Source: Patescibacteria group bacterium
Lineage (GTDB): Bacteria > Patescibacteriota > Patescibacteriia > Patescibacteriales > UBA12465
NCBI GenBank assembly: GCA_041671365.1
Contig: JBAZBP010000001.1
Span: forward strand, 389,518 to 453,517
Reading direction: 5' to 3'
DNA: 64,000 bases
The notes under the pieces were generated by a model. That model worked only from the letters and a program-made list of their open reading frames with translations. It had not been told where the DNA came from and did not search any database. The translations under genes and the position numbers were made by a program. This document shows positions 8,725 through 58,190 of this stretch, piece after piece; the first letter of the stretch is position 1, and each line of letters starts with the position of its first letter.

Positions 8725-8744
8725 TTTTTTAGTTTTATCATTTC

Positions 8745-21253: not shown

Positions 21254-22306
21254 ATGATAAAATCAATTCATCGTTATTGGCGCCGACGCTGGGAAAAATA
21301 TTATTTAAAAAGTCATTGGCACACAATTTTAGATTTATCTTTGACCATTATCGTTATATTTTTAACGGCAATTATTATCGGTTTCTATTCTTATCGACCG
21401 AACGTTTCCGAGATTAAGATTAATTATCCTTCACCGGTCGACCTGAATAATCCGCCGCTCGAATTAAATTTTTCTGTAGACAATAAAACAATTGCTTTAT
21501 CCGACAGTGTCCAGCTTAAAATAAATTTTAAAAATAACGGATTGGAGCCGGTCAGCAACGTGCTGATTGATTTGGTTTCAGTTGATCAAAATTTTATTTT
21601 ATCTCGAATAAATTTATCGACCAGTACTCCTAACGAGACTTTAAAGGGACAAGAATTAATTTTAAATAATATTGCCCCCGGCCGGGACGGGGAAGTCAGC
21701 TTACTGGTTAATTTTAAAGCTAAAAATTCGCTGGAACGACTGGTTAACTGGCAAGCTCAGAGTCAATATAGCTTTAACGGACAAGTATTAAAACAAACCG
21801 AGACTTTACCGGTCTTAACCGTCACTGCGCAGCTAAGCGCCCGAAATGAGATTTATTATACCAGTCCTCAGGGTGATCAGCTGGGTGTCGGACCGGTGCC
21901 GCCAATAGTCGGAATTCCGACTAGCTATTGGGTTTTTTGGGAAGCTAAAAGTTCGGATGATTTTAAAAATTTAGTCTTCAGCGCCCGTCTGCCGCAAGGC
22001 GTAGAGCTTAAATCCGGACGGTCAATCCTGGCCGGTGAGTTTAATTATAGCTCTTCTACTCGGCAGTTAATTTGGAAAGTTCCGATGTTAAAGGGCCAAG
22101 ACGACAGTTATCGCCTAGGTTTTGAGATTCAAATAGTCCCCAGTATTCAACAGGTCGGCCAAATTATTGATCTTTTAAGTAGTCCGCAATATTACGCCAC
22201 CGACGTTTTAACCGGTCAAGCGCTTAGCGGCACGCTCGCCCCTTTAACGACTAATTTAGAAACCGATCGTTTTAATTCCGGCCAAGGAAAAGTTATAAAT
22301 CAATAA
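21254..22306 (+). CDS. hypothetical N-terminally anchored extracytoplasmic protein
   Basis: One TM (LSLTIIVIFLTAIIIGFY) followed by a beta-rich sequence. Confidence 0.5.
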   Translation: MIKSIHRYWRRRWEKYYLKSHWHTILDLSLTIIVIFLTAIIIGFYSYRPNVSEIKINYPSPVDLNNPPLELNFSVDNKTIALSDSVQLKINFKNNGLEPVSNVLIDLVSVDQNFILSRINLSTSTPNETLKGQELILNNIAPGRDGEVSLLVNFKAKNSLERLVNWQAQSQYSFNGQVLKQTETLPVLTVTAQLSARNEIYYTSPQGDQLGVGPVPPIVGIPTSYWVFWEAKSSDDFKNLVFSARLPQGVELKSGRSILAGEFNYSSSTRQLIWKVPMLKGQDDSYRLGFEIQIVPSIQQVGQIIDLLSSPQYYATDVLTGQALSGTLAPLTTNLETDRFNSGQGKVINQ

Positions 22307-23564: not shown

Positions 23565-24521
23565 ATGGACAAAAATAAAACTATAATTAAATATCTGGCA
23601 GATTACCTGGATTATTGCGAGATTGAAAAAGGCTTATCTTCTAAAACCCAGGAGAATTATACTCGTTTTCTAAAAAAGTTTTTTAATTGGCTAAAGGAGA
23701 CCAACCAAGAGGGTTTAAAACCCTCTTCCCTGACTCCAGAACACATTTGGCGGTATAAAGTCTATCTGGCTCGTCATGTTGATCCTAAAGCCAAAAAAAC
23801 TCTAAAAAAAACTACGCAAAACTATTATTTAATTGCTTTACGTTCTATTTTAGAGTTTTTTGCTGAAAAAGATATTCCTTCCCTGCCGTCTTCAAAAATA
23901 AAATTAGCCAAAGATAAGGCCGATAAAGAAATTAAATTTTTAACCTTGGAGCAATTAGCTCGCTTATTGGAGTCCCCCGATCAAGGCAGTATCATCGGTT
24001 TACGCGATCGGGCTTTACTGGAAACTTTATTTTCTACCGGTTTGCGAGTCGCCGAGTTGGCGGCTTTAAATCAAGAGCAATTGCGAATTAAAACTGATAC
24101 TCTAGATATTGAGACGGCCATTATTGGCAAGGGTAGTAAAATTCGGACCGTTTATTTTTCCGATCGGGCCGTTAAGGCTTTACGTCGTTATCTGTCCGAG
24201 AGAAAGGATTTTGATGAAGCTTTATTTATTAATTATCGCCGCGGAGGCGCTTTAAAACAAGAATCACGGCGTTTAACCGTAAAAAGCATCGAAGATATCG
24301 TTAAAAAATACGTTAAAATTACCGGATTGCCGGTAATGGCTACTCCTCATACTTTGCGTCACTCTTTCGCCACCGATTTATTAAATCAGGGAGTTGATTT
24401 GAGAACAGTCCAAGAATTTTTAGGTCATAGTAATATCGCCACCACGCAAATTTATACTCATGTGACCAATAAGCAATTACGAGATATTCACCGGAAGATT
24501 CACGAGGGACGGAAATTTTAA
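23565..24521 (+). CDS. tyrosine recombinase XerC/XerD family
   Basis: N-terminal SAM-like domain; ETLFSTGLRVAEL, HTLRHSFATDLL, LGHSNIATTQIYTHV. Confidence 0.85.
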   Translation: MDKNKTIIKYLADYLDYCEIEKGLSSKTQENYTRFLKKFFNWLKETNQEGLKPSSLTPEHIWRYKVYLARHVDPKAKKTLKKTTQNYYLIALRSILEFFAEKDIPSLPSSKIKLAKDKADKEIKFLTLEQLARLLESPDQGSIIGLRDRALLETLFSTGLRVAELAALNQEQLRIKTDTLDIETAIIGKGSKIRTVYFSDRAVKALRRYLSERKDFDEALFINYRRGGALKQESRRLTVKSIEDIVKKYVKITGLPVMATPHTLRHSFATDLLNQGVDLRTVQEFLGHSNIATTQIYTHVTNKQLRDIHRKIHEGRKF

Positions 24522-29640: not shown

Positions 29641-29669
29641 TTGACAAATAATTTATTATATAGTAATAT
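29641..29669 (+). promoter_or_regulatory. sigma70-like promoter (TTGACA-17-TAATAT)
   Basis: Read directly, 25 nt upstream of the GT4 start. Confidence 0.5.
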
Positions 29670-29693: not shown

Positions 29694-30806
29694 ATGAAGA
29701 TTGCTTTTATCGGACAAAAAGGAATACCGGCCAATAACGGCGGCGTAGAAAAATACGTCGAAAGTTTAGCGGTTAATTTGGTGGCTTTAAACCAAGAAGT
29801 TTTAGTATACAATCGCCAAGATTATTTACCCGATCAACTTAAAGAATTTAAGGGGATAAAGATTGTTAATATATCTTATTTTAACAGCAAAAACCTTGCC
29901 AATATTACTCAAACCTTTTTAGCGATTCTTGATGTCTTAAAACGTCGGGTTGATATTGTTCATTTTCAAGGCGTTGGCCCCTCCCTGCTGTGCTGGCTGC
30001 CAAAATTATTTAACCCTCGTTTGAAGATAGTCGCCACTCTGCACAGCTTTGATTATTACAATGACAAATGGAGTTGGTTCGCTAAAAAAATGCTGCAACT
30101 CGGCGAGCACTTAATGTGCCGCTATGCCGATCAGGTTATTGTTTTATCAGTATTCATGAAAAATTATGTCAAAACTAAATATAATTGCGAAGCTACTCTA
30201 ATACCCGGTGGCGCTGATTTGTATACTGCCCTCGACCAAGATTGTTTATCAACCTGGAGTTTAAGCCGAGGAAATTATATTCTTAGCGTTTCCCGAATTA
30301 TTAAATTAAAAGGGTTGCAGTACTTGATTTCCGCCTTTAAAAATTTAAAAACTACAAAAAAATTAGTCATCGTCGGTGAAGGAGAATATCTGGCAGTGTT
30401 AAAAGAATTAGCCGCTAGCGATGACCGAATTATTTTTACCGGCAATCAAAACGGCCGGACACTGGATCAATTGTATGCCAATGCTTATATATTCGTGCAG
30501 CCTTCGGAAATGGAGGGACTATCTATCTCTTTGTTAGAGGCGATGGCCCATCGGAACGCTTGTTTGGTGAGCGATATTGAAGCTAATCGCGAAGCGCTCG
30601 CCGGCACCGGTTTTACTTTTGAAACTAAAAATACGGCCGATTTGCAAAAGCAATTAGAAAAATTACTTATAGATCAGGAAGAAGTAGAAATTAAGGCGGC
30701 GGCGGCCTATGAGCGCGCTCGGCAAAATTTTACTTGGGTTGGAGTGGCTGAAAGGATTTTAAAATTTTATCAAAACTTATTAGCCATAACGGCAAATAAT
30801 AAATAA
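29694..30806 (+). CDS. GT4-family glycosyltransferase
   Basis: KIAFIGQKGIPANNGGVEKYVE N-terminus and PSEMEGLSISLLEAMA (EX7E). Confidence 0.8.
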   Translation: MKIAFIGQKGIPANNGGVEKYVESLAVNLVALNQEVLVYNRQDYLPDQLKEFKGIKIVNISYFNSKNLANITQTFLAILDVLKRRVDIVHFQGVGPSLLCWLPKLFNPRLKIVATLHSFDYYNDKWSWFAKKMLQLGEHLMCRYADQVIVLSVFMKNYVKTKYNCEATLIPGGADLYTALDQDCLSTWSLSRGNYILSVSRIIKLKGLQYLISAFKNLKTTKKLVIVGEGEYLAVLKELAASDDRIIFTGNQNGRTLDQLYANAYIFVQPSEMEGLSISLLEAMAHRNACLVSDIEANREALAGTGFTFETKNTADLQKQLEKLLIDQEEVEIKAAAAYERARQNFTWVGVAERILKFYQNLLAITANNK

Positions 30807-30855
30807 TTTTCTATTTTTAATAGAAAAAAATGATCTTTAAAAACTAAATCAAAAG

Positions 30856-30875
30856 TCATCAATAAAAGGAGATCT
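30856..30875 (+). repeat. left copy of a perfect 20-bp inverted repeat containing an SD (tcatcaataaaaggagatct)
   Basis: Exact reverse-complement match to 32972-32991. Confidence 0.9.
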
Positions 30876-30878
30876 AAC

Positions 30879-32081
30879 ATGAAAAAGTTCTGGTGTGTTA
30901 TTTGTTTATTTGTTCTGGTTCTGTTCGCGGGGGGATGTAAACGGGAAAATCCAGTTGAGGCACCACAGTCGGAAAATTCAGCCGGAATTTTTATGAAAAT
31001 CAATGGGGCGACGCTTCCAGACAGCTCAGTTATGGAAAAACGAACTCAATATATATTTCAATTAACGGCAAATTTTACGGTTAAATCGTGGACAACCACT
31101 TTCGGGGACGATGGGACTAGTGTTTCTGGCGATATTGTCCAGCACGCTTTCAGAGCCGACACTACTTCAACTACGATCATCGTGGTAGCCGTAGACCAAA
31201 ACAATACCGTTCATCAAAAAACGTATAAAGTTACGTTAGTGTCAAACATATCCACTCCTGCCGTTATCTGGGTCTCAAAAAAAGATTTAGGTAATGGTTC
31301 TTGGGAAGAGACCTTTATTTTTCTAAAAGAAATAACCCAAGACTTGGTCGGTCCGTATGCTTATACTGGTAACGTGACCAATCCCACTTGGGTCACGACT
31401 AAATTCGTTGATACCAACAAAATCTTCAATAATGGTACAGTAAGCGATCCGCCATCTGGCGAAAAAGGAATCTATCTGATGGTCAAATTCAATCTTAGTC
31501 CAAATCCTTATGATATGGGTGTCGGTAAAATTGACCCCGCAACTAATTCCTTGATTTGGAAAGAATTTGACGGTCCGTACGCTGACGGCAATCACGTTAA
31601 GTTTACGGTCACGGCTAATGGCGACGTTACGCCAGGCGGAGTAATCCCTAATAACACTGACCCTCCTGGTGATATCGGTGATATCGGTCCCAACGCCGTC
31701 AACCGATATGGAGTAAGAGATTCTACTAAGCTCGTAATATTAGTAAATAATTTTACTCCTTGGGTTTCGGGATCTAGTTTTATCAGATCTCAAAATTCAG
31801 CCGGTTTATTTGTTCAGCCTGTTTTACAAAATGAAATTCCGGTTTATAGTAATTGGGGTAAATTAGAAATTCTAACGAAAGACATTCCGGCTGACGGAAA
31901 GTTGGTTTTCAATTATGGAAATCAAATTTCTAACCCGCTGGGATTTAATCCTAACGCTTCTAAGTCCTATTTCTACTCCGAGACAAGTGGGGTACTAAAA
32001 GTTATTATAAAAAAAGTCGGTTTAGGTAAAGTCACCGGTACCGGTCCAAAACAATATTGGACAGTCACCGTTGAAAGATAA
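30879..32081 (+). CDS. hypothetical lipoprotein
   Basis: MKKFWCVICLFVLVLFAGGC lipobox-like signal. Strong SD AAGGAG. G+C is higher than the surroundings. Confidence 0.6.
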   Translation: MKKFWCVICLFVLVLFAGGCKRENPVEAPQSENSAGIFMKINGATLPDSSVMEKRTQYIFQLTANFTVKSWTTTFGDDGTSVSGDIVQHAFRADTTSTTIIVVAVDQNNTVHQKTYKVTLVSNISTPAVIWVSKKDLGNGSWEETFIFLKEITQDLVGPYAYTGNVTNPTWVTTKFVDTNKIFNNGTVSDPPSGEKGIYLMVKFNLSPNPYDMGVGKIDPATNSLIWKEFDGPYADGNHVKFTVTANGDVTPGGVIPNNTDPPGDIGDIGPNAVNRYGVRDSTKLVILVNNFTPWVSGSSFIRSQNSAGLFVQPVLQNEIPVYSNWGKLEILTKDIPADGKLVFNYGNQISNPLGFNPNASKSYFYSETSGVLKVIIKKVGLGKVTGTGPKQYWTVTVER

Positions 32082-32105
32082 AAAACTGAACCGAAGATAT
32101 TTAAA

Positions 32106-32134
32106 GCCGCGTGTAAACTATACGCGGTTTTTTT
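32106..32134 (+). terminator. rho-independent terminator
   Basis: CCGCGT / ACGCGG stem plus T7. Confidence 0.65.
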
Positions 32135-32168
32135 AATTTTATTTATGGGGGCCCGCAGTTAGCGCCAA

Positions 32169-32201
32169 TAAAAAACCCTTATCTACTTGCGTAAATAAGG
32201 G
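32169..32201 (-). terminator. rho-independent terminator for the minus-strand island genes
   Basis: CCCTTAT / ATAAGGG stem. The A-run on the plus strand gives a T-run on the minus strand. Confidence 0.6.
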
Positions 32202-32263
32202 CTTGGAAACTATCTATCTATCACCGTAGATATGGTAGTCTCCGAAAGCTAAACTAGTTCGGC

Positions 32264-32968
32264 TTATTTCTGCCAAACATAGTAATCGCCTTCTAACGAC
32301 ATCGGTACCAATTTCCATTGGGTGGCGCCGGTAGTTAATAATAGAATTTTGACTATCTTTTGCGGTCCGAGATAGTCACTTAGAGCACCTGCCCTAATCC
32401 CAATTTTTCCACTAGTCGTAACGCACACGTCGCCAGTGAAATAATCCACAAACTGCGAGATTGCAATCCGGAAATTTATTCCGTCCCGAGTGGTGTTCGG
32501 AACAGAATAGTTATATTGCTTTTGGTCCCGATCGAGCGCGATCTGGGGCCACCAATTACCTGAATTGTCGTTTAGCTGCACCGCGAACTCGGTATAGTTA
32601 TTGGAGCCACAAAGGTTTGTGACCCCTGATGACGAAACGCTACTTGGTGTAGCTGACGATGCTGCCGGAGCGTCGTAAGTAATTGTGTTCGGTGCAGGAG
32701 TTGGACTTTCTTCGTTGTCCGTAATCGGTCTAATATAGGTCGGTCTAACATAGGTATGTTGACGACCGGATGATTTTTTACTACATTTTTTTAAACTCTC
32801 GACACTTTTAATTAAAGAGTCGGCCTTGGCCAGCCATACTGAATCCATGTTCACTGTTTTTTGTTTAACGGATTCTTTGACGGCCGTGAAGCAATTCCAT
32901 GGTTTTAGTAAAAACACTGCTACTACTATAATAAGAATCGCGGCCCAAATTACATTGGTTCTGTTCAT
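32264..32968 (-). CDS. hypothetical N-terminally anchored protein
   Basis: TM VIWAAILIIVVAVFLL. Strong SD within the 20-bp repeat. Confidence 0.55.
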   Translation of the reverse strand: MNRTNVIWAAILIIVVAVFLLKPWNCFTAVKESVKQKTVNMDSVWLAKADSLIKSVESLKKCSKKSSGRQHTYVRPTYIRPITDNEESPTPAPNTITYDAPAASSATPSSVSSSGVTNLCGSNNYTEFAVQLNDNSGNWWPQIALDRDQKQYNYSVPNTTRDGINFRIAISQFVDYFTGDVCVTTSGKIGIRAGALSDYLGPQKIVKILLLTTGATQWKLVPMSLEGDYYVWQK

Positions 32969-32971
32969 TTC

Positions 32972-32991
32972 AGATCTCCTTTTATTGATGA
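32972..32991 (-). repeat. right copy of the perfect 20-bp inverted repeat
   Basis: agatctccttttattgatga is the reverse complement of 30856-30875. Confidence 0.9.
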
Positions 32992-33008
32992 TTTATGATT
33001 GATTTTTT

Positions 33009-33860
33009 TTAATACAAACCGGAAATATTTACACTGACCCCAAAACTAAATTGTTTACTCCACTTGTACAGGTAGTAAACTGATGCGAAATCATCTTCAC
33101 CCCATTGATGGATAGACATTTCAACTCCAAGTCCGTACTCTCCCTTCTTATTGCCAACCGCATAACTATATGTCCCGAGAATTTTTGGACTTAGATATGA
33201 TGTTTTGTGAACATACCAATTAACCAAACTTCCTTTAGCTGTAGCTTGGTAATAAGTCATGTTCCAGGGATTATCGGCTAATTGTTCATTGTTCCAATAA
33301 GCCTCTTGTTTTGTCAGTAGAGGTTTTTGCACCCCTAGCTGGACCTGAAACCTGGGAAAATAATTTCCAACTCGTTTTAACAAGTTGAAATTTAAACTCC
33401 CACAAACTAAGACATCTTCTTGCCTTCCCCGATAATTCCCTACTTTTGTCGAGCTCGCCCCCTTGTTCAGAGAATACATAAACCCCAAGCTGATTCCGGT
33501 AAAGGAATCATACAGACGACTGAATGACGGACTGTAATAACCGAAAATATTCCCGAAACCAAGACTCAGTCCTTTTCCGGAATATCTCTCCATATTGTCA
33601 ACAAAACGAGAATCGTTAGCTGAAGCCCAAATTCCGTACGTTGTTTGTTGATTTTGAGATTGGCTAAATATATAATCCGCAAACACTCCATCGTAGGAGT
33701 TGTAGGTATTTAGATTCATAATTTTGGCGCCTACTCCGCCATAAATAACTAAATCATATTTCGCTGTTTTTGTCGGGAGCATCTGTATTCCGATAGAGTT
33801 TTGCCCCAGAAGAGATGCCGTCATAACCATGGCTAGCCACAGTGTTAGTATTTTTTTCAT
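33009..33860 (-). CDS. secreted beta-barrel-like protein resembling outer-membrane porin/OMP families
   Basis: Signal peptide MKKILTLWLAMVMTASLLGQ. Alternating-hydrophobic Gly/Tyr-rich strands and a C-terminal FSFGVSVNISGLY ending in an aromatic residue. Very strong SD GAAGGAGGAGG. Confidence 0.5.
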   Translation of the reverse strand: MKKILTLWLAMVMTASLLGQNSIGIQMLPTKTAKYDLVIYGGVGAKIMNLNTYNSYDGVFADYIFSQSQNQQTTYGIWASANDSRFVDNMERYSGKGLSLGFGNIFGYYSPSFSRLYDSFTGISLGFMYSLNKGASSTKVGNYRGRQEDVLVCGSLNFNLLKRVGNYFPRFQVQLGVQKPLLTKQEAYWNNEQLADNPWNMTYYQATAKGSLVNWYVHKTSYLSPKILGTYSYAVGNKKGEYGLGVEMSIHQWGEDDFASVYYLYKWSKQFSFGVSVNISGLY

Positions 33861-33923
33861 TTTGAACCTCCTCCTTCGGGGGTTGTTTGTTATAGAACTT
33901 AATTGATTATTTAAAATTAATTA

Positions 33924-34712
33924 TTAATATTTTAAAACATTATTCATATTTCCCCGAGGCTGAAATTCTTCCGGTCGGTAATTGTTTTCCTGAAAATTAT
34001 TTAAATTGTTCGGGGTACTGACGGGGTAATAGTCTATTTTAATATTGTGCCCGATATTTTTAGTTTTTTTGGCACTACGTGTCGGCCAAAGTTTAATATT
34101 GTAGCGCTCTTCCGGAAAAAGATAAACATAAAACAAAGATAAGGTCAGGCTGCCGGCTAAAGCTAAGGCGAGATTTTGGGGAATATTTGGTCGGACCGGA
34201 TAACTGGAAATAAGGGGCTGATCAATAATATTAATTTTAATTTCCGTTCCGTTGCCCTGATAATTAGCGTTTTTGTTCATTAATACGTCATTGACGGCTA
34301 AAGCAATCTGCTGAGCTTGATAAGGGTTAGGATGATAAATGTCAATCTCGATAATACCGGTATCAGCTAAGGTTTTAGTTTGAATCGTCTGGGTCCAGGT
34401 TTTGATCTGTTGATTATAATTGCCGGAAAAATAATTCTTATCAATATCATACTGAGAATTAAGAGCTAAATTATAAAAAGATCCGGAATAAACTACTTGA
34501 GCAAAAAGATTACCCAAATACTCATTAGACTCGGAAACGGTATAAGGGTCGTTCCCGACGGTATTCTGAACTACCAATAAGCGAGATTTGGCTTCATATT
34601 TTAAGGGAAAAAGCAAAGAAATACCTAAGGTTAAAATAAGAATTATAAAAACCAGGGTTAATATCGTTCCCCTTTTCTTTTTTATCAGTTTAATGAAATT
34701 CAAGAACTCCAT
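33924..34712 (-). CDS. Wzz/YveK-like polysaccharide chain-length determinant protein
   Basis: N-terminal TM followed by PLKYEAKSRLLV, and a C-terminal TM. Confidence 0.5.
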   Translation of the reverse strand: MEFLNFIKLIKKKRGTILTLVFIILILTLGISLLFPLKYEAKSRLLVVQNTVGNDPYTVSESNEYLGNLFAQVVYSGSFYNLALNSQYDIDKNYFSGNYNQQIKTWTQTIQTKTLADTGIIEIDIYHPNPYQAQQIALAVNDVLMNKNANYQGNGTEIKINIIDQPLISSYPVRPNIPQNLALALAGSLTLSLFYVYLFPEERYNIKLWPTRSAKKTKNIGHNIKIDYYPVSTPNNLNNFQENNYRPEEFQPRGNMNNVLKY

Positions 34713-34883: not shown

Positions 34884-36191
34884 ATGAAAAGGATAATTTT
34901 TCTGTCCGTAATCTGTTTAATGGCAGTTTTAGCTTTAACCCATAACGGCCAAACGCAAACAAAATCTTATTATTCCGGAGATGCGATTAATTTTAATAAT
35001 TCCCTTTACGTTGGTTCAACCGATACCGGGAGTTTGGAGATTTTTAAATTGGAGAATAATGATTTACAGCAATTAGTTACGCTGCGACCGCTAGATGCTC
35101 GTTTCGGACGCTATGAAAGCTTTTACGATTTAAAATTTTCAGTGGAATCCGGCCATCTGTTTGTTTATACTATTAACGGTTACAGTTTGTATAAATATGA
35201 AGTAGTCGGCGATAATCGCTTAGTTTTGATTGTCAGTTCCAAAAATACTTATTGGGAGTGGTATAATCGGGTTGATAAATTTGGCGACAATATTATTACC
35301 ATTAGCGATAAGGGGGCAAAAGTTTGGACTAATGACTTGCAGACTATTATTGCTTATACCGCTTCGGATCTGGCTATTCCGGTCGCCACGGATTCTTATA
35401 ATAGCAATTATAATATCCGGGCCTATAATAATAATTATATTTTAAATGTTCAAAATAATTATTTAACGGTATTCAGCCGCGAAACTCAAACACAAATAAG
35501 CAATATCCCGCTAAATTACAAGATTAATCCCGGTAATCGCCAAGCTTACCAAGATGAGAATAACGATATTTTCGTTGTCGATGATTATTATGCTAAAAAG
35601 TTTTCACTCGATGGACACCTGCTCGGCAGTTTTCGCCATTTAGACTATGCCGGTTATGATGTGGCTATCTCCGGCCACAGCAATTACCTTTATTTTTCAA
35701 ACGGTATTGGTTTGGTAAAATTGGATAAGGACACGATGAAATTAGCCGAATTCCGTTATACCGGCGGTTTGGGCGGTCCGCGCGGCTGGGCCATGGGTTT
35801 AAAGTCGGTTTATGTTAATGGCGATAAAGTTGTAGTCTTTAATAATTCGAATATTTTAGTTTTAGATTCTAACTTAAATAAATTGGCCGTTTGGCAGGCG
35901 ACGGAAGTAACGACTCCGGTTAGCGTCGAAAATTTATATCTCAATCTGGATCATAGCGTGGGCACGCCGCAAGCCAAAATTGTTTTAAGCGGCGGCGGCT
36001 ATCTTCCTAATGAAAATTTAATAATTACTTTCGGTGATGTCCAAACGGCCGGCCAGGCTGATGCTCGCGGCCGCTTTACTCAGAATTTATCAGTGCCAAA
36101 CTTGCCTATCGGTTCGCCCGATATTACTGATATTAAAGTAGTCGGCGCCAGTTCAAATTTAAGTTATAGTATTTCCTTCAAAATCAAATAA
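34884..36191 (+). CDS. hypothetical secreted protein (beta-propeller-like sequence character)
   Basis: Signal peptide, no motif recognised. Confidence 0.5.
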   Translation: MKRIIFLSVICLMAVLALTHNGQTQTKSYYSGDAINFNNSLYVGSTDTGSLEIFKLENNDLQQLVTLRPLDARFGRYESFYDLKFSVESGHLFVYTINGYSLYKYEVVGDNRLVLIVSSKNTYWEWYNRVDKFGDNIITISDKGAKVWTNDLQTIIAYTASDLAIPVATDSYNSNYNIRAYNNNYILNVQNNYLTVFSRETQTQISNIPLNYKINPGNRQAYQDENNDIFVVDDYYAKKFSLDGHLLGSFRHLDYAGYDVAISGHSNYLYFSNGIGLVKLDKDTMKLAEFRYTGGLGGPRGWAMGLKSVYVNGDKVVVFNNSNILVLDSNLNKLAVWQATEVTTPVSVENLYLNLDHSVGTPQAKIVLSGGGYLPNENLIITFGDVQTAGQADARGRFTQNLSVPNLPIGSPDITDIKVVGASSNLSYSISFKIK

Positions 36192-36210: not shown

Positions 36211-36245
36211 AAAATACCGCCCTGAATTCAGGGCGGTATTTTTTA
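36211..36245. terminator. bidirectional terminator (32-nt perfect palindrome)
   Basis: AAAATACCGCCCTGAA / TTCAGGGCGGTATTTT lies between convergent genes. Confidence 0.75.
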
Positions 36246-37463
36246 TTTGAGAAGTTTTTGATAAAGGGCTAATACTTCTTTAATATTTTGATCGGGCGAG
36301 AAGGCTTCGACGGTTTTTTTAGCTTCCCGACCGATAGCTAATCGATCGATTTCAGTCAAACGTTTTATCTGTCTGACCAAATCATTAACATCACCGGGTT
36401 GAAACAGCAAACCGTTTTTATTTTCTTTTATCACTTCGGGCATACCGCCGATTCTGGATACGATGACAATCTTTCCCAGACTAAGCGCTTCCATTAAGCT
36501 TAAAGGCATGTTCTCTCCCCAAATTGAAGGAATAATGACGGCTCGAGCGTTCACGATAATCGGTTTTAACTCCTGATTATTTTTAAATCCGCTGAATTCT
36601 ACGGGCGCCCTCAGCTCTGTCGCCAATTTTTTTAGAGCGGCTTCTTCCGCTCCCTCGCCGACCAGTTTAGTTTTTTGGCCGGTGAGAGCAGCTGCTCGAA
36701 TCAAAGTCTCTAAGCCCTTTTCTGGGCTGAAACGACCAAAATACAAAAGATATTCGGGACTACGGTTATTTTTTTCGTCGCCGCGAGTTCCCGCCAATTC
36801 GGAGTTATAAGGGTTAAAAATAACCGAAATTTTTTCCGCCGGGTGTCCAAAATTAACGACAATTTCTTTCATAAAATTGCTGGGAGCAATAAACCAAGAA
36901 ACGTTTTGTTCATAAATTTTTAAAATCGAATGATGCCAATACATTTCTAGGGTACCCAGGGCGCTTCCGGCGAAAGAGTTTTTAATACATCTATTTTTTA
37001 GACATTCATAGTACTTGTTCGGCCGGCAGCGTTCACACATCATCCCTTTGGTAAATAAAGTGTGATTGGCGCAAATTAATTTATAATCTTGCAAATGCAG
37101 AACTACCGGTATTTTATATTTTTGGGATACGCTTAAAATCGAAGGTGATAGATGATGATAAATATTATGCAGGTGGATAATATCCGGCTGAAAATCTCTA
37201 ACCAACCGAGTAAATTTTTTTTTCGCTTCTAAACTATATAATACCCGGCCCGGCGTTTTTAACTTATCGATTAAATTGCCCTCGTTAAAGCTGATACGCG
37301 AAACGAAATAACGACTCCAAAGGGTCGGCCAATTTTTAGGATGATGCATGGAAAAGACGGCAACTTGATGTCCGGCCGCTTCTAAATTTTTCGTTAAATC
37401 GAGAAAATATTTATCGGCGCCGCCGCGAGGATAATAAAATTGATTAACTTGTAATATTTTCAT
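36243..37463 (-). CDS. GT4-family glycosyltransferase
   Basis: MKILQVNQFYYPRGGADKY, EGAEE.., PSIWGENMPLSLMEALS. Confidence 0.8.
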   Translation of the reverse strand: MKILQVNQFYYPRGGADKYFLDLTKNLEAAGHQVAVFSMHHPKNWPTLWSRYFVSRISFNEGNLIDKLKTPGRVLYSLEAKKKFTRLVRDFQPDIIHLHNIYHHLSPSILSVSQKYKIPVVLHLQDYKLICANHTLFTKGMMCERCRPNKYYECLKNRCIKNSFAGSALGTLEMYWHHSILKIYEQNVSWFIAPSNFMKEIVVNFGHPAEKISVIFNPYNSELAGTRGDEKNNRSPEYLLYFGRFSPEKGLETLIRAAALTGQKTKLVGEGAEEAALKKLATELRAPVEFSGFKNNQELKPIIVNARAVIIPSIWGENMPLSLMEALSLGKIVIVSRIGGMPEVIKENKNGLLFQPGDVNDLVRQIKRLTEIDRLAIGREAKKTVEAFSPDQNIKEVLALYQKLLK

Positions 37464-38586
37464 GGCTGATATTTTTTTTATTTAATAAATCGAAATATAA
37501 AACCTGATATCTTTTCGCAATTTTAGAAATATCATAATTATTAATTATTCGTTCCCGTAAGCGTTCGGCTCTGAAGTTAACTTCCGGACTATCAATATTG
37601 TTAGCGAGCCAATAAATTTTAGCCGCCCAGGCCGCCTCGTCGCCGGCCGGTACCGGCCAACCGGTGCCTTCATCAATAATCTCCCTGATACCGTCAACCG
37701 ACGAAGCGATTATTGGTAAACCGATTAAACCCGCTTCCAATAAAACCAGACCCTGCCCTTCCCATAAAGAAGGAAAAACAAACACATCAAGAGAATTAAG
37801 AAACCGAACCGATTCTACCGGACCGACTAATTTTATCTCCGTTTTTAATTTTGCGGCGGCTATTTCATCTTTTAATTTATGGGCGAGAGGTCCGACACCG
37901 GCGATCAGGCATAAATACCCCCGCTGTTTTAATTGCTTCCAAACGCGAATTAGGCCGGAATACCCTTTTTGCGGACTAAGCCGGCCGATTGTTCCGAAAA
38001 CTAGAGGTTTATTTTTTCTGACCTGATTAACGACAGAATTTTTAGCTTGATTTAAAAATTTATTTATTTCCAAACCATTGGGAATAACAATAATTTTATT
38101 TTCTTTGGTGCGATAACGAGAAATCAGATCGCTTTTAACCGCTTGAGAAATGGCGACAATCTTATCGGCATAACGGCCGGTGATTCTTTTGATAATATTA
38201 TTTAGCAGTTTTTCATCGGGATTAACATTTTGTTCCGTTGATAAAATAACCGGTATTTTTAATAACTTAGCCGCCAGTCGGCCGTAAATATCGCCGCCAA
38301 GCTGGGTATGGACAATTTCGGGATTAATTTTTTTCAAAACTTTAAATAGTTGCCAAAAATTTATTAGATCAATTTTATGTTTTTTTTCTAAAATAATAAC
38401 GGGAATATTTTTTGTGCTTAATTCGCTTAACCAATCGCCGCCGCGCTTAAACAAAATTAAAGTTGAGTTGAAAAATCGACTATCTAAATTAAGAATTAGA
38501 TCCGTTATAAATCTTTCCGCCCCGCCCTTGTCCAGCGAGGGCATAACATAAACAATCTTAATTTTATTTTGACGGCTTTGGTTCAT
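37444..38586 (-). CDS. GT4-family glycosyltransferase
   Basis: KIVYVMPSLDKGGAERF and PSLWEGQGLVLLEAG. 20-nt overlap with the downstream gene. Confidence 0.8.
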   Translation of the reverse strand: MNQSRQNKIKIVYVMPSLDKGGAERFITDLILNLDSRFFNSTLILFKRGGDWLSELSTKNIPVIILEKKHKIDLINFWQLFKVLKKINPEIVHTQLGGDIYGRLAAKLLKIPVILSTEQNVNPDEKLLNNIIKRITGRYADKIVAISQAVKSDLISRYRTKENKIIVIPNGLEINKFLNQAKNSVVNQVRKNKPLVFGTIGRLSPQKGYSGLIRVWKQLKQRGYLCLIAGVGPLAHKLKDEIAAAKLKTEIKLVGPVESVRFLNSLDVFVFPSLWEGQGLVLLEAGLIGLPIIASSVDGIREIIDEGTGWPVPAGDEAAWAAKIYWLANNIDSPEVNFRAERLRERIINNYDISKIAKRYQVLYFDLLNKKNISHENITS

Positions 38587-39850
38587 ATTTTTTTTCTAAT
38601 AGTCTAACCGCTACCAAAGCTAAGGTAATTGGCAGCCAAATTTTACCTTGATAGTAGGAGGTATTGAAAAATTGAAAAAACAATCCGCCGGCGCCGGCTA
38701 AAAATAACGGTAAGAGCCAGGGGTTGCCGGTTTGATATTTTTTTACAGATTCATAACTGATTTTTATCAGATAAATCATAATAAATAACCAAGCCGCTAA
38801 ACCGAAGATGCCATTCTCAACCAGAATTTTTTGCAAGAATCCGTGTGAATCTATCGGAGAACCGAACTTAGCGATAAAACGAATATTATGACTTATAAGA
38901 CTAACATACTGGCCACTACCTTGGCCAAGATAAGGTTTGGCCAAAAAAGCTTGCCAGGAAATTTCTGTCAGCAGCCGGCGACTCGCGGTTGAACCGGCGT
39001 TATCTTGCTGAAATTGATCCATTTTCCAGCCGAGCGGCGAGAGAATCAACAGCAAAATGATAGTAGTTATAATAATGTTTTTCGACTGATAATTTTTTAT
39101 TCGCAAATAATACCAAACATAAATTAGAATTTGTAATAATAAAGTAATCCAAGCGGCGCGAGAAAATGTCAAAATAATCGCGAAAGCCGTTAAAATAAAA
39201 ACTATATTCAACAAACGCTTAAACCCCCGATGTTTTATCAGCGCTTTTAAGACTAAAATCAAAAATATTCCGATGTTTAAAAACTCGGCAATTAAATTAT
39301 GATTCTGTCCAAAAGGATAAATACCCCACCAGCCGATAGTATTTAATTGGTATAAATTATTATGCCAATCTTGGCCATAGAGCGACAAATAACCGCAAAT
39401 TAAGACAACGCTAGCGCCGGCCAGCAGAGCGGTTATGGTCCGCTTTAATATCCGACCGTCGATAATTAAATTATAGGGCAAAAATATATAAGCAAAATAT
39501 AGAAAAACCGGCCAGCGGGCGATATAGTATAAAGAAGAAAACGGTTGAGACGAAAAAATGGCTGATAAAATATTAAAAAATAAGAAAACAGCAAAAGGAA
39601 AAAATAAGGGCCAAACGATTGGTTGTTTTGACGAAAAATTAAAAAAGAAAAAGAAAACGGTTCGCAAAATGAAAGCTGTTAAAACTAAAAGTGCGAGAAG
39701 ATCAATCAAGGGGAGCAAAAAACCGTAAATATCAAAAGACCAACCGCTTACCGGCAGCAAAAAAGCCATTAAGTATAAACCAATTAGCGGTTTAACCAAA
39801 AAAATGGCTAAGAATAAAACTAAAGCTAGAATAACGAATATAGTCCACAT
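38564..39850 (-). CDS. O-antigen ligase/polymerase-like (Wzy_C) membrane protein
   Basis: About 10 TM helices and the FSRAAWITLLLQ motif. Confidence 0.6.
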   Translation of the reverse strand: MWTIFVILALVLFLAIFLVKPLIGLYLMAFLLPVSGWSFDIYGFLLPLIDLLALLVLTAFILRTVFFFFFNFSSKQPIVWPLFFPFAVFLFFNILSAIFSSQPFSSLYYIARWPVFLYFAYIFLPYNLIIDGRILKRTITALLAGASVVLICGYLSLYGQDWHNNLYQLNTIGWWGIYPFGQNHNLIAEFLNIGIFLILVLKALIKHRGFKRLLNIVFILTAFAIILTFSRAAWITLLLQILIYVWYYLRIKNYQSKNIIITTIILLLILSPLGWKMDQFQQDNAGSTASRRLLTEISWQAFLAKPYLGQGSGQYVSLISHNIRFIAKFGSPIDSHGFLQKILVENGIFGLAAWLFIMIYLIKISYESVKKYQTGNPWLLPLFLAGAGGLFFQFFNTSYYQGKIWLPITLALVAVRLLEKKYEPKPSK

Positions 39851-39882
39851 AACTGACTTAATAATATACTAAAATTAGGAAT

Positions 39883-39909
39883 AAAAAAAGGGCTGAAATG
39901 TTCCAGCCC
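39883..39909 (-). terminator. rho-independent terminator
   Basis: GGGCTG / CAGCCC stem. The plus-strand A7 gives T7 on the minus strand. Confidence 0.6.
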
Positions 39910-39939
39910 TAAAACGTCAAAATGTTAAAACGTTTTGTT

Positions 39940-40974
39940 TTAACGATCCTTTTTTTGAATTTCAGCGTTACTCTTAGAAGGAGTGATGTTTATTATTCCC
40001 TTTTCAAAGTAACCCCTGATCTCAATCTTTTCTAATTTTCCGAGATCAGTCGGAAATTCCGGATAGGGGTTCGAATTGTCTTGCCCAATAGCGACATAAA
40101 CATTGTGACCCAGCAGTTTAGCGCTTAAATACGCGAAGTCTAAATCCTTAGCGGATTTGATTTTTATTATGGTATAATCACCGGTTTTTCGACCGTTAAT
40201 CAGACACTGCCACCAACCACCGTCGTAATCATCTCCTAAATAATCATTGCGCCAATCCTCGAACATTCGGCCATCCAAATCATCCATGTATTCGACCGAT
40301 CCTTTGTTGGCAATGAGGATAAATTTTTTTCCCATCACTTGGCGAATTTTATGCAGGAAAGATTTAACTCCCTCCGACATATTATTATCCAGGATATAGT
40401 CCAGATCTGGTTGCCCGTCATTATCGGCGTCGATCTGTTCTCCCTTACCGCTGTAAAGCCAAGCCCACTTCCCTGAACCGTTGTCACAGAAGTAGCCATC
40501 AACGAGAGAATCTCTTAGAATTCCATTTGTTAATTTATCTGCATACCAATCAGTATACGTTTGCCCATTTATTTTTGGACAAGTTGAGGAAACATTCAAC
40601 ATTCTCATTTTTGGCGTAAAAACTGCTTCGTTTCTTCTATCCGTCTTCAATAACCAAACCGGAAATTTAGTGTATATTTCATTGGCGAGAGCTTGTTGCC
40701 ATGGTCGATTTATTCCGGCATTCGGGAAAACTTCTAACAAGTTAGTGTAAATTATTAAAAGAATGTTCGGATTTAGCTTTTTTAAAAGCTGAAGGTTTTC
40801 CCGATTGTTCTTCCAATTATCGACATCTACAATTATTAAATCGTTCCCAGCCAGAGATTTAGCCACAGTCTCGCTCATTTTAGGTGATGTCCAATAATTA
40901 GCCTTTAATATTTTTTGGCTGAAAATAGGTAGAGAGTAAACGACAACTAACAGAATTATTAGTATTTTTTTCAT
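39940..40974 (-). CDS. secreted glycoside-hydrolase-like TIM-barrel protein, paralog of the N-terminal domain of 19213..21246
   Basis: Signal peptide MKKILIILLVVVYSLPIFSQ; DLIIVDVD, NPNILLIIYTN, DGYFCDN, GRMFEDW line up with the motifs of the 677-aa protein. G+C-richer lines. Confidence 0.5.
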   Translation of the reverse strand: MKKILIILLVVVYSLPIFSQKILKANYWTSPKMSETVAKSLAGNDLIIVDVDNWKNNRENLQLLKKLNPNILLIIYTNLLEVFPNAGINRPWQQALANEIYTKFPVWLLKTDRRNEAVFTPKMRMLNVSSTCPKINGQTYTDWYADKLTNGILRDSLVDGYFCDNGSGKWAWLYSGKGEQIDADNDGQPDLDYILDNNMSEGVKSFLHKIRQVMGKKFILIANKGSVEYMDDLDGRMFEDWRNDYLGDDYDGGWWQCLINGRKTGDYTIIKIKSAKDLDFAYLSAKLLGHNVYVAIGQDNSNPYPEFPTDLGKLEKIEIRGYFEKGIINITPSKSNAEIQKKDR

Positions 40975-41088
40975 GATTTCTTTTCCTTTTTATATTTATT
41001 TTTTAAATGACACATTATCGGTTATTAACGAAAACAATCAATTTAAGTTGATTGTTTAGTGTATAATATTTTTTAGTTTTAGTCAAGG

Positions 41089-41757
41089 CTATTTTTCTAG
41101 AAATAAAACGCAATGCCCCATAATTCCTCGCCATTTTAATTTTTTTAAAATTTTATCGTAGGTTTTTCCTAAAAAATTTAAAATTGGGAAATGGTAGAGA
41201 TAAGAATAAATTGCTGGAAAACGTCGATCCTCTTGTAGTTTTAATCCATTATTTTCAAATAATTTTATTAGCTTTTCTATACTGCCATAAGCGTATTTAA
41301 CCGGATAGGCCGGATCATGACCTTTTTCACGCAGTAGTTGGTGAAAAGAAGTCGGAGTTATGCGGGCTAAGCGGAATTCCGGAGCCCGGGGGTTAGATAG
41401 ACTAATTATAAGTTTCCCCCCCGGTTTTAAAATACGAGTTATTTCGGAGGCGGCCGCCAGCGGATCGGAAATATGTTCTAAAACAAAATTGGCGAAAACG
41501 CAGTCGTATTCGTTAGAGTTAATGGCTGTCATTTTTTCTAAAGGACAAATAAAACTTTGTCCGATGTATTCTTTAGAAACAGTATTGGGCTGGATATCCG
41601 ATCGGTCGCAAACAAAATTAATGCCGTCTTGGATTAATTCCTCTTCGATAACGACACTTTGAGCCGCTCCTAAATTAATAATTTTTGATTTTCCCGAAAC
41701 TAACTTTAGAATTTTTTTTAAAAGTTTAATTAGGTATTTTTCGGCGTCATTCTGCAT
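41089..41757 (-). CDS. class I SAM-dependent methyltransferase
   Basis: DCVFANFVLEHISDP and LKPGGKLIISL. Confidence 0.7.
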   Translation of the reverse strand: MQNDAEKYLIKLLKKILKLVSGKSKIINLGAAQSVVIEEELIQDGINFVCDRSDIQPNTVSKEYIGQSFICPLEKMTAINSNEYDCVFANFVLEHISDPLAAASEITRILKPGGKLIISLSNPRAPEFRLARITPTSFHQLLREKGHDPAYPVKYAYGSIEKLIKLFENNGLKLQEDRRFPAIYSYLYHFPILNFLGKTYDKILKKLKWRGIMGHCVLFLEK

Positions 41758-41761
41758 ACTT

Positions 41762-43657
41762 TTAATATAATTGAAATATCCGATTACTATTTAAATCAGT
41801 TGACCATTTTTTGTTTTGGCCGCGACCAGGGTTGAGACTGACCGTCAAACTTTCGATTCTCTGTCCGGCTTGTCGTTCGACGAATAACTGGTAGTTTTTA
41901 GCTTTTAGCTCTTCATTAATAGCTTGCGGTAAACGATAGCTTAAAGTTATTTCTCGTGAACTGCCCGGTTCAACGGTAAAGAAGAAGCCGAAAACGGTTT
42001 TATTAAGAATGGGATCTTCGGTTACACTAATATCCGCCGTCGTTTGATCGACACCGTTAAGGGCGACAAGCTGGCTGTCCAGAGGAGCATAAATCCTAGT
42101 GTAACTACGGTAACGAGTCGTACGCCAATCAAATTCGCCCTCGTGGCGATAATTCAACTTAACGGTAGCTTGAGCGCTTTGATTATTTACCGCTAAGCTA
42201 TAACTTAGATTTTTTTTAACCACCACATCACTTTTAAAGGCGGCCAGATTAGAATCGACCACCATTAAAAAATCTTGATCGGTATTAACAACTTCACCGC
42301 TGGCTCCCAGAGTTCGAACTAGATCTTCCCAGCCGGGATTAAAAAAATACATTTGAATATTTTTTTTCGTGACACTATTATCTAAAATGCTAAATAATTT
42401 AGTCCAATCGGCCGACGGAAGATTAAATAAACGCGTTTTTAATTTAGCCACCAGTTCGTTGATAATATTTTTTCTATCCCAGGAAGAAATAGCCTGATCT
42501 TTATAAGCTACTTCGACATTATATTGCAAAAGTGCTTGAAAATTATCCGAATTATAAGTAGCCCCATTAACCGTTATCGGTCCGACTAACTTTATTAAAT
42601 CAGCTACTAAGTCGGGAGTAATCGCAATAATCCCGGTAAACAAATCGCTGGGCTGACCGATAGCGATGCTCTCGCCGTTATAAATCTCAATAATTTTCTT
42701 GGCTGACTGCGGCCAATCCGGCGACCAATTGGCATCGCGCAGATACCATTTCTCTACTTTTAAATATTTCTTTAACGGAGCCGGCGGCTCCAAACTCCAA
42801 TTAATACTTTGCGAGGCGGGCATATCTAAATGATAGCTATCGTCGGTCTTCAAAGAAATAATTGTCCCATTTTTTACATCTAGAATACCGTAAACACCAA
42901 TAAATCCGCCAGTAGCACGCAGTTCATCGTTGTTTTGTAAAATAAGAAGATATCGGCTGTTATTCGGATATCCTGCTAAAGCAGGCAGCAATTTAATCAC
43001 TGGCGAAATCTTACTCATTATTACGGAAGCTTGTCTTAATTCTTGTTTAATATTACTAATTTGACTGAAAATCGGCCAGAGAACGCCAATTTGATGAATC
43101 CGATCAAGATTTAAAGTAGCTAAATCTAAATTAGCTTTCAGACCACTAAGTTCTGGTTCTGATTCGTAAATTAATTGAAGAAAACTACTTTTATCATTAA
43201 GAGATAAATCAATAAAATTACGGCTGGCTGTTCCCGAACGAATATCGTCCAATTTCTGAACAATAGGCAAAACCCTTTTTAGAGATCGACTTAAAATTTC
43301 TCCGGTTTGAAGCAAGTATTCCAAGTCATTAATTTGTGAAACAATCAGCCCAACGTTACGAATCGTAGAGTGTTGACGTGAATCATTTAGGGCGTTTAAA
43401 GCCTCAGAAAATTTTAATTGAGCTTCGGTGTCCGCCTTTAAAGCGGCTGACCAGTCTTGCACTTTTATGGCCGTAACGGCGGAAGTCAAGGCCGCCTTAG
43501 CCGCTAAACCGGCCGAGACAGCTTTCTTAAAATCACCATAAGCGCTGCTTAGTAAAATTATAAGTAAAATTATACCGCCAAAACTGATTATAGCTAAATA
43601 TTTTAATGCCCGCAAAATCAGCTGGCCGACAAAAATAAAATGTTTTTTTACATTCAT
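41762..43657 (-). CDS. DUF4012 domain protein (envelope-locus associated)
   Basis: N-terminal TM and LLILQNNDELRATGGFIGVYG, the signature as I recall it. Confidence 0.55.
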   Translation of the reverse strand: MNVKKHFIFVGQLILRALKYLAIISFGGIILLIILLSSAYGDFKKAVSAGLAAKAALTSAVTAIKVQDWSAALKADTEAQLKFSEALNALNDSRQHSTIRNVGLIVSQINDLEYLLQTGEILSRSLKRVLPIVQKLDDIRSGTASRNFIDLSLNDKSSFLQLIYESEPELSGLKANLDLATLNLDRIHQIGVLWPIFSQISNIKQELRQASVIMSKISPVIKLLPALAGYPNNSRYLLILQNNDELRATGGFIGVYGILDVKNGTIISLKTDDSYHLDMPASQSINWSLEPPAPLKKYLKVEKWYLRDANWSPDWPQSAKKIIEIYNGESIAIGQPSDLFTGIIAITPDLVADLIKLVGPITVNGATYNSDNFQALLQYNVEVAYKDQAISSWDRKNIINELVAKLKTRLFNLPSADWTKLFSILDNSVTKKNIQMYFFNPGWEDLVRTLGASGEVVNTDQDFLMVVDSNLAAFKSDVVVKKNLSYSLAVNNQSAQATVKLNYRHEGEFDWRTTRYRSYTRIYAPLDSQLVALNGVDQTTADISVTEDPILNKTVFGFFFTVEPGSSREITLSYRLPQAINEELKAKNYQLFVERQAGQRIESLTVSLNPGRGQNKKWSTDLNSNRIFQLY

Positions 43658-56148: not shown

Positions 56149-56157
56149 AAAATTTTA

Positions 56158-57429: not shown

Positions 57430-57436
57430 AGAATTC

Positions 57437-58153: not shown

Positions 58154-58190
58154 AGATAGAGTGAGTTAATAAACTATTGTATAAATAAAT

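Follow-up and report, generated by a model that had tools for sequence, protein, structure and literature searches.

A putative native envelope module of Candidatus Falkowbacteria (Patescibacteria) with a predicted outer-membrane-type beta-barrel

The DNA stretch analysed here, referred to below as the window, comprises 64,000 nucleotides of a contig from a Patescibacteria group bacterium and carries three adjacent genes, A, B and C, at positions 30879-33860 inside a surface-polysaccharide locus. Gene A (30879-32081, + strand, open reading frame (ORF) of 400 aa) encodes a beta-rich putative lipoprotein with the lipobox LFAGGC. Gene B (32264-32968, - strand, 234 aa ORF) encodes a bitopic protein with an N-terminal transmembrane anchor, and gene C (33009-33860, - strand, 283 aa ORF) a Sec-exported protein predicted to fold into a 12-stranded outer-membrane-type beta-barrel. 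The same three ORFs, with the same coordinates, had been marked in an earlier reading of this sequence (the original prediction), which also named the lipoprotein and the anchored protein; both assignments hold, given the lipobox with its invariant Cys20 in A and the N-terminal membrane anchor in B. The host had been supposed to be of the candidate phyla radiation (CPR) type, and this is borne out as well: the source is a metagenome-assembled genome (MAG) of Patescibacteria, and the informative names in the clade are Candidatus (Ca.) Falkowbacteria. The NCBI entry identical to protein B is WC249_02110 of such a MAG (529-kb contig), and the window resembles a reduced CPR genome in its housekeeping genes, DUF4012, GHL15 and VirD4-like coupling protein. 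Related loci used for comparison are numbered from L001 onwards; L001 is the Logan assembly of SRR18595301, L006 a 62-kb Joint Genome Institute (JGI) contig, L009 a 678-kb contig, CAYYDR010000001.1, and L010 and L011 are two GC-richer contigs.

The AlphaFold2 model of protein C built on an alignment of 61 sequences has a mean predicted local distance difference test (pLDDT) score of 91.8 and a predicted template modelling (pTM) score of 0.83, and it is all-beta with about 12 long antiparallel strands; with 4 close homologs only the pLDDT was 32. When the model was compared with the PDB by Foldseek, every top match was an integral outer-membrane barrel and no soluble barrel was among them. The best matches are Hbp, NalP, BrkA and EspP (E from 1e-8 to 1e-6, TM-score 0.55-0.64), followed by OpcA, KdgM, OmpG and CymA. 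The alignment with the autotransporter translocators extends over about 260-290 columns at 9-13% identity. Judged by this superposition on closed 12-stranded barrels at TM 0.55-0.64, the barrel of C is probably closed as well. The guess that the 283-aa protein is a barrel was thus well founded, considering the pLDDT of the model and the outer-membrane nature of all its best PDB matches.

The mature protein of about 263 aa is occupied by the barrel throughout, apart from about 14 residues of low confidence that precede strand 1 in the AlphaFold2 model. It contains much Gly, Ser, Tyr and Asn, and its longest hydrophobic run does not exceed 5 residues. The strands have one strongly hydrophobic face, and the other face is polar or charged with conserved Q147, R170, K226 and D257. 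The family-mean hydropathy alternates in dyads in strands 5, 6, 7, 10 and 12, and the last strand follows the pattern F-x-F-x-V-x-V. The C-terminus of the window protein reads VNISGLY; a terminal Phe, Tyr or Trp is found in 24 of the 61 aligned family members, and an aromatic residue, often followed by Lys, stands within the last 6 positions in 44 of them.

The N-terminus of C has the features of a Sec-type signal peptide (MKK start, hydrophobic core and a small residue ahead of Gln), and the dipeptide [AGS]Q occurs at residues 11-40 in 58/61 family members, in line with the signal peptide proposed earlier for this protein. The Gln is probably the first residue of the mature proteins of the family. 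Signal peptides ending in [A/G/S]-Q were also seen in other exported proteins, namely GHL15 and X homologs in L006, L010, L066, L084 and L085. An A/G-Q ending resembles the “Q-rule” of Bacteroidota.

The profile search collects 69 cluster representatives of C (50% identity) with a length of about 264-316 aa. The window protein matches no Pfam or NCBIfam family at a meaningful score, and the profile search of C against the PDB sequences returned nothing meaningful. Weak Pfam matches among the 61 family members are confined to Autotransporter, PagL and OMP_b-brl; PF03797 is matched weakly in 3/61 (best E = 4.7e-4) and not by the window protein. By its sequence, C founds a new protein family.

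Among known systems the closest in fold to C are the beta-domains of autotransporters (type Va; NalP 1UYN/1UYO, EspP 2QOM, Hbp 3AEH, BrkA 3QQ2; PF03797), which like C span about 250-280 residues and form barrels of 12 antiparallel strands. Unlike these domains, C has neither a passenger domain nor a pore-filling linker helix and stands alone with its own signal peptide; it gives no PF03797 match and belongs to an organism considered to have no outer membrane and no beta-barrel assembly machinery (BAM). OpcA, KdgM/NanC and OmpG, present among the Foldseek matches, share with C the stand-alone Sec-exported organisation and have 10-14 strands, and KdgM, with 12 strands, passes acidic oligosaccharides, which fits the polysaccharide locus of C. 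They differ in their lower TM (0.31-0.49), in the lack of any sequence relationship and in their origin, which is always a diderm. The polysaccharide porins of diderms (PgaA, PelB, AlgE, BcsC) resemble C in another respect, namely that the barrel gene lies within the locus near the co-polymerase, and PelBC (9H80) and a polysaccharide “secretin” (4Y25) are found among the weaker Foldseek matches. However, these porins have 16-18 strands, partners with tetratricopeptide repeats (TPR) or of the outer-membrane polysaccharide export (OPX) type and a true outer membrane, and partners of neither kind are found beside C. The Wzp porins of Myxococcus, which partner polysaccharide co-polymerase (PCP) and OPX proteins, are similar to C in this sense. 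Of the PCP-OPX pair the co-polymerase is present here, and Poly_export/SLBB is matched by none of A, B, C and X.

In protein A, Cys20 following the lipobox (LFAGG-C) is invariant in 7 homologs that are 24-81% identical to the window protein; A homologs are found in L006-L011. From its sequence, A is a multi-domain, beta-rich lipoprotein. A similarity of residues 1-130 to FimD_tip_adhes (E = 3.8e-4, 19 bits against a cut-off of 170) is sub-threshold and was rejected. Behind its N-terminal anchor, protein B has a Pro/Ser/Thr-rich spacer that varies greatly and, after it, a conserved C-terminal domain of about 115 aa. The anchor, a wall-spanning Pro-rich spacer and a small C-terminal domain are the parts of which TonB and TolA are made, and B is moreover encoded beside a barrel gene; the search for TonB_C and TolA in B gave no match at E <= 1. 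The architecture of B, read from its sequence, is therefore TonB-like without homology. ExbBD is reported to be absent from CPR (PMC6744442).

The genes around A, B and C are those of a polysaccharide locus in the order WecG/TagA-NUDIX, CorA, GT4(DUF1972) and A, followed on the other strand by B, C and a Wzz/CpsC-like gene; beyond Wzz follow X, two GT4, Wzy_C, GHL15, methyltransferase and DUF4012. The GT4/DUF1972 glycosyltransferase upstream of A (29694-30806, + strand; Pfam Glycos_transf_1, Glyco_transf_4, DUF1972) is syntenic with A in L006, L008, L009 and L010. The Wzz/CpsC-like polysaccharide co-polymerase (33924-34712, - strand) is recognised with a weak profile score (TIGR01006, E = 6.6e-10; Pfam Wzz, E = 1.7e-3). 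Its divergent neighbour, gene X (34884-36191, + strand), encodes a conserved secreted protein of 435 aa with no known family. The remainder of the locus (36243-43657, - strand) holds, by Pfam, the two GT4, the Wzy_C polymerase/ligase, GHL15, the methyltransferase and DUF4012, and its gene order is kept in L006, L009, L010 and L011. Since the co-polymerase matches the CpsC-type TIGR01006 and DUF4012 is present, the surrounding locus is assigned by sequence to the Gram-positive type of Wzy-dependent surface-polysaccharide loci, capsule or exopolysaccharide (EPS). Gram-positive capsule/EPS clusters are known to carry DUF4012, a domain enriched in CPR (PMC6744442). Gram-positive Wzy-dependent loci have the CpsC-type co-polymerase, Wzy, GT4 and DUF4012 in common with the present one; unlike it, these monoderm loci normally contain no beta-barrel component. 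Together, C and its surroundings amount to a new protein family and a new form of envelope module in an unexpected lineage.

Because promoter-like sites precede GT4 (TTGACA-17-TAATAT, 29641-29669, + strand) and Wzz (TTGACA-17-TATTAT, 11/12, 34765-34737, - strand), the genes probably form two transcription units, one running from GT4 to A and the other from Wzz through C to B. The two units converge on a pair of terminator-like hairpins: one (32103-32131, + strand; 13-bp stem, then a T-run) would end the GT4-A transcript and the other (32204-32173, - strand; 14-bp stem, then a T-run) the Wzz-C-B transcript. Convergent terminators belonging to these genes had been proposed before, and the hairpins are now located. 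The second one, 32173-32204, is 98% conserved in L002 in spite of the replacement of the adjacent B gene.

All three genes are preceded by strong Shine-Dalgarno (SD) sequences: AAGGAG at 30866-30871 for A, AAGGAG at 32976-32981(-) for B and GAAGGAGGAGG at 33867-33877(-) for C. An SD of at least 6 nt is present in 3/3 of these genes and in 1/51 of the other genes of the window (Fisher p = 1.6e-4), and one of at least 5 nt in 3/3 and 5/51, respectively (Fisher p = 2.3e-3); the original prediction was correct in calling strong SD sites general in the three genes and rare elsewhere in the window. The SD-containing leader of A (30839-30878, + strand) is conserved in L008, and the SD-containing leader of B, which is the C-B spacer (32969-33008, - strand), is conserved in L003, L004 and L007. 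The two leaders are 87% identical over 45 nt (inverted repeat I1: 30839-30883 (+) and 32964-33008 (-)). The shared sequence takes in the SD and the start codon and, in the case of B, makes up the whole C-B intergenic spacer; it may serve both genes as a translation or regulatory element.

The leader of C (33861-33886, - strand) is identical in L002-L005, and its SD lies within a small hairpin (33865-33884), where it occupies the loop and the 3' arm. The hairpin was noted in the window and also in L006, L012, L013, L016-L018, L021, L053 and L054; it has -5.5 to -11.8 kcal/mol in 9/10 leaders folded individually and -2.0 in L020. In the individual folds the stems vary by lineage and still pair (AACC/GGUU, AAUUCC/GGAAUU, CCGCC/GGCGG, GAGCC/GGCUC). 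As the stem sequences differ between lineages and stay complementary, they suggest a structured RNA element that governs the translation of C, either SD-sequestering or SD-presenting.

The SD sites of A, B and C are kept throughout the subclade of the window (L002-L008), including L006, whose other genes lack SD. L009 has weaker sites, and L010 and L011 have none. Over 80 loci, an SD of at least 5 nt precedes 16-26% of the A, B and C genes versus 6% of other ORFs. Given this distribution, the SD trait is by sequence comparison a derived, sub-lineage-specific one and no mark of foreign DNA.

The base composition of the three genes was reported earlier as G+C-rich. The island has 40.9% G+C versus a mean of 38.3% (standard deviation 2.1) for the 3-kb chunks of the window, which places it at the 91.5th percentile, and the values for A, B and C (0.408, 0.438 and 0.396) lie within the range of 0.31-0.44 of the window genes. 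The excess is thus not significant, and the island is richer only than its immediate neighbours. The broader claim of compositional distinctness is upheld in part. While G+C is no outlier, no other 3-kb chunk of the window deviates as far in tetranucleotide composition (z about 3.8), and in synonymous codon usage, scored by length-corrected resampling over 53 genes, C ranks 1 (z = 9.8), B ranks 2 (z = 7.4) and A ranks 4 (z = 5.0). The fraction of C-ending codons among NNY codons (those ending in a pyrimidine) is 0.44 in B, 0.40 in A and 0.33 in C versus 0.21 pooled, with B and A ranking 1 and 2 of 53; A and B over-use TTC, ATC, AAC and GAC. The same tendency towards C-ending codons recurs in exported proteins of the locus in L006 and L009. 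A preference for C-ending NNY codons is a classic mark of translational selection, and for this reason the codon bias, together with the SD sites and the private terminators, is best read as a sign of high expression and not of foreign origin. More generally, in an SD-poor genome SD sites and codon bias can signal high expression instead of foreign DNA.

The relation of the three genes to their genome was examined by comparison of loci. Over 12.8 kb that include both junctions of the island, L001 and the window are 100% identical. The same arrangement is present at 86%, 73% and 67-69% nucleotide identity in L002-L005, L007 and L008, which come from other samples, and the whole locus is found in order in L006 (C 40% identical), L009 (C 35%) and L010/L011 (C about 24-25%). 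A search of the GTDB genomes with alignment A1 found nothing, and gene X served as the handle for finding the locus in other genomes. With it the locus was detected in 95 or more GTDB species representatives. Where their names are informative, these are Ca. Falkowbacteria or Patescibacteria, and two of the locus-bearing genomes, CP066698.1 (977 kb) and OW818634.1 (896 kb), are complete chromosomes. Many TPA (third-party annotation) MAG records with the locus are titled “uncultured Gammaproteobacteria bacterium” (L013, L016, L017, L019, L026 etc.), which is evidently a placeholder; “Bacillota bacterium” is the label of one cluster member and “Saccharimonadales” that of one locus. Organism names in public records are thus not reliable for this clade.

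Profile scans of 80 loci detect C in 57, B in 38 and A in 23, counts that are lower bounds because B and A diverge fastest. Wzz lies directly upstream of C on the same strand in 37/53 loci with gaps of 45-175 nt, and of the 38 loci with both B and C, 37 have B next after C on the same strand. For the remaining 16 loci, one small gene lies between Wzz and C in 6/6 inspected. The intervening protein has about 160 aa and an N-terminal anchor (L028, L032, L039, L041, L068 and others; in L028 at 8324-8854), and it may be an optional fourth member of the module.

A word-indexed search of 5.8 billion proteins yielded 2-4 homologs each for A, B and C, and no homologs beyond this clade were found among 5.8 billion and 1.84 billion proteins. 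No relatives of A, B or C were detected in phage or plasmid records (by tblastn), viral contigs, PHROGs or PADLOC, and scans of the window revealed no tRNA gene, no Rfam element and no att-like repeats. A tyrosine recombinase gene (Phage_integrase, 23565-24521, + strand) is present in the window and occupies the same position in L001 and L009-L011; by sequence it is probably a housekeeping Xer-type enzyme and not an island marker. On the comparison of these sequences, A, B and C are native to Ca. Falkowbacteria (Patescibacteria/CPR), where they form a vertically inherited module, putatively of the envelope.

A, B and C change much faster than the genes around them. Between L006 and the window the flanks are 61-79% identical, and A is 52%, B 53% (C-terminal half only) and C 40% identical. 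In L003 Wzz is 94% and C 55% identical to the window, and in L002 Wzz is 93%, C 86% and B 32% identical. Positions 32164-33860 of the window were compared with L002, L003 and L007 for steps in identity. The sliding nucleotide identity to L002 is about 87% through X, Wzz and C and 50-60% from the start of B; that to L003 is about 90-95% in Wzz and 55-65% from the start of C. The steps coincide exactly with gene boundaries, and the leaders and the terminator flanking the cassettes are nearly unchanged. These sharp steps at gene boundaries between conserved leaders and terminator point to recombining cassettes, and we infer that A, B and C are surface-exposed and are swapped by homologous recombination under diversifying selection.

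The following scheme would account for these data. A, B and C would be expressed from the convergent 3' ends of the two operons (GT4 to A; Wzz to C to B), and in the genus of the window all three would be made in large amounts, to judge from their SD leaders in an SD-poor genome, their preference for C-ending NNY codons and the terminators that belong to them. C would be exported through Sec and fold into a 12-stranded outer-membrane-type beta-barrel, lodged in a hydrophobic layer of the cell's own that lies outside the cytoplasmic membrane. The barrel together with the Wzz-like co-polymerase would constitute the outermost conduit or anchor of the polysaccharide layer. B would sit in the cytoplasmic membrane and project its conserved C-terminal domain on the long Pro/Ser/Thr spacer, thereby acting as a tether that reaches the barrel, and A would be a surface partner; all three would be exposed at the cell surface and diversify by cassette-like recombination. 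The scheme presumes co-transcription, high expression, surface exposure and a physical interaction of A, B and C with the Wzz-like protein, and its most conjectural elements are the existence and the nature of the layer that would hold the barrel. That the genes form a native module whose barrel works with Wzz in a hydrophobic layer of the cell's own envelope, with B as a tether and A as a partner, appears to us evenly balanced between right and wrong.

Several observations weigh against this scheme. CPR are considered to have no outer membrane, and TonB-ExbBD and PilQ are absent from them; for Patescibacterium danicum, a related member of ABY1, a single membrane with murein was inferred, and the type IV secretion system (T4SS) is of the monoderm type (PMC6744442, PMC12102498, PMC11809585). 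The 64-kb window contains no Omp85, BamA, Lpt/LptD, Lol or TolC-like genes, and no Poly_export/SLBB (Wza-type OPX) match was obtained for A, B, C or X. A belongs to no Pfam, NCBIfam or PDB family, and B has no Pfam match even at E <= 1 and no PDB family. The barrel fold of C is a prediction, with closure and hydrophobic belt judged indirectly. The SD sites are confined to the subclade of the window, so high expression may not be general, and co-location with Wzz is no proof of joint function.

Two other placements of C were considered. The barrel may be exported into the outer membrane of a host or prey cell as a feeding pore or self-supplied receptor, with B and A holding the cells together. 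CPR are treated as one-membrane obligate epibionts (PMC12102498, PMC6744442, PMC11809585), and the rapid, cassette-swapped evolution of A, B and C relative to their flanks is what a host-range arms race would look like; the long extensible spacer of B and the want of a BAM-like gene within the 64-kb window agree with such a role too. On the other hand, C is tightly coupled to a Wzz-like polysaccharide gene and not to type IV pili or T4SS genes. To our knowledge there is also no established precedent for a monomeric 12-stranded barrel inserting spontaneously from outside through the lipopolysaccharide (LPS) leaflet, which speaks against this placement, and we regard it as rather unlikely. Quite unlikely, too, is that C resides in no second bilayer at all and is either secreted or wall-associated (for example as a binder of glycan or of a lipid-linked intermediate) or located in the cytoplasmic membrane, its likeness to outer-membrane proteins being convergence at the level of fold. 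No outer membrane or BAM is known in CPR (PMC6744442, PMC12102498, PMC11809585), the identity to the structural matches is just 9-13% at a moderate TM of 0.55-0.64, the window protein has no Pfam match, and the aromatic terminus is limited to 24/61 members. Yet every structural match is an integral outer-membrane barrel and not a soluble one, the hydrophobic face of the strands lies opposite a polar/charged one, and 12 strands of 10-21 residues presumably cannot bury a hydrophobic core.

The remaining alternatives concern the origin of the genes. The original prediction had offered three options, namely recent transfer from a diderm (with signal peptides that look Bacteroidota-like), a chimeric bin or assembly, and an unrecognised envelope feature. 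Recent acquisition of the genes as an island from Bacteroidota or another diderm might seem indicated by codon usage and tetranucleotides that are the most deviant in the window, by SD sites unlike those of the host's other genes and by the A/G-Q signal peptides, which may resemble those of Bacteroidota. It is nevertheless very improbable, as the genes keep the same slot and neighbours in relatives with as little as about 24% identity, the locus occurs in 95 or more species, no homologs outside the clade were found among 5.8 billion and 1.84 billion proteins and the genes are no outlier in G+C; tRNA genes and att-like repeats are lacking, and the nearby integrase-family gene is itself syntenic. 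The Bacteroidota idea conflicts, in addition, with the strong SD sites. Bacteroidota largely lack SD sites and rarely use them. An ancient transfer at the base of Falkowbacteria may have taken place and would leave the functional puzzle unchanged. A phage, plasmid, defence system or other mobile element is suggested by nothing but the cassette-like replacement between strains and is extremely improbable in view of the empty searches of phage and plasmid records, viral contigs, PHROGs and PADLOC, the want of tRNA, Rfam elements and flanking repeats and the fixed chromosomal position across the clade. That a chimeric bin or a misassembly has joined diderm DNA to a CPR contig is next to impossible: the compositional deviation is all that favours it, and L001 (SRR18595301) matches the window at 100% for 12.8 kb through both junctions, while other samples and dozens of other species share the junctions and the gene order. 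With recent transfer and chimera refuted by the synteny and the L001 assembly, the unrecognised envelope feature is the sole survivor of the three options.

Some further genes of the window deserve mention. A cluster at 54895-59948 (- strand) encodes two MacB-type permeases (MacB_PCD + FtsX), an ATP-binding cassette (ABC) ATPase and a 585-aa HlyD-type membrane-fusion protein. MacB-type pumps dock on an outer-membrane channel in diderms and are known from Gram-positives as well. An RVT_1 ORF at 62968-63762 (- strand; E = 9.5e-9), possibly a fragment, has a strong SD AAGGAG, as very few other ORFs outside the three genes do, and a TTG start, and could belong to a retroelement such as a diversity-generating retroelement (DGR), a retron or a group II intron. 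The proteins encoded at 724-2343 (+ strand; thrombospondin type 1 repeat, TSP1_ADAMTS, E = 4.5e-6) and at 21254-22306 (+ strand; DUF11) could be further cell-surface or adhesion candidates.

A literature search returned no account of the C family, nor of an outer-membrane-type barrel from any CPR organism. Much of bacterial diversity belongs to CPR/Patescibacteria, and they hold a key place in the debate over a one- or two-membrane ancestor; they are treated as one-membrane organisms for want of outer-membrane biogenesis genes, and the predicted barrel of C offers a concrete molecular test of this view. That a whole CPR lineage of class level, Ca. Falkowbacteria/ABY1, makes an outer-membrane-type barrel of 12 strands, apparently without BAM, and couples it genetically to a capsule co-polymerase and a TonB-like tether is in our estimation slightly short of an even chance. 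If it is true, these bacteria would have either an unrecognised lipid-containing outer layer, as a relic or a re-invented outer membrane, or a barrel of its own planted in the outer membrane of a host. In the former case some CPR would possess an unrecognised outer layer and BAM-independent barrel assembly, and in the latter a new kind of epibiont-host interface would have been found. Either way, A, B and C are identified as the hypervariable surface proteins likeliest to set host or phage specificity in Falkowbacteria.

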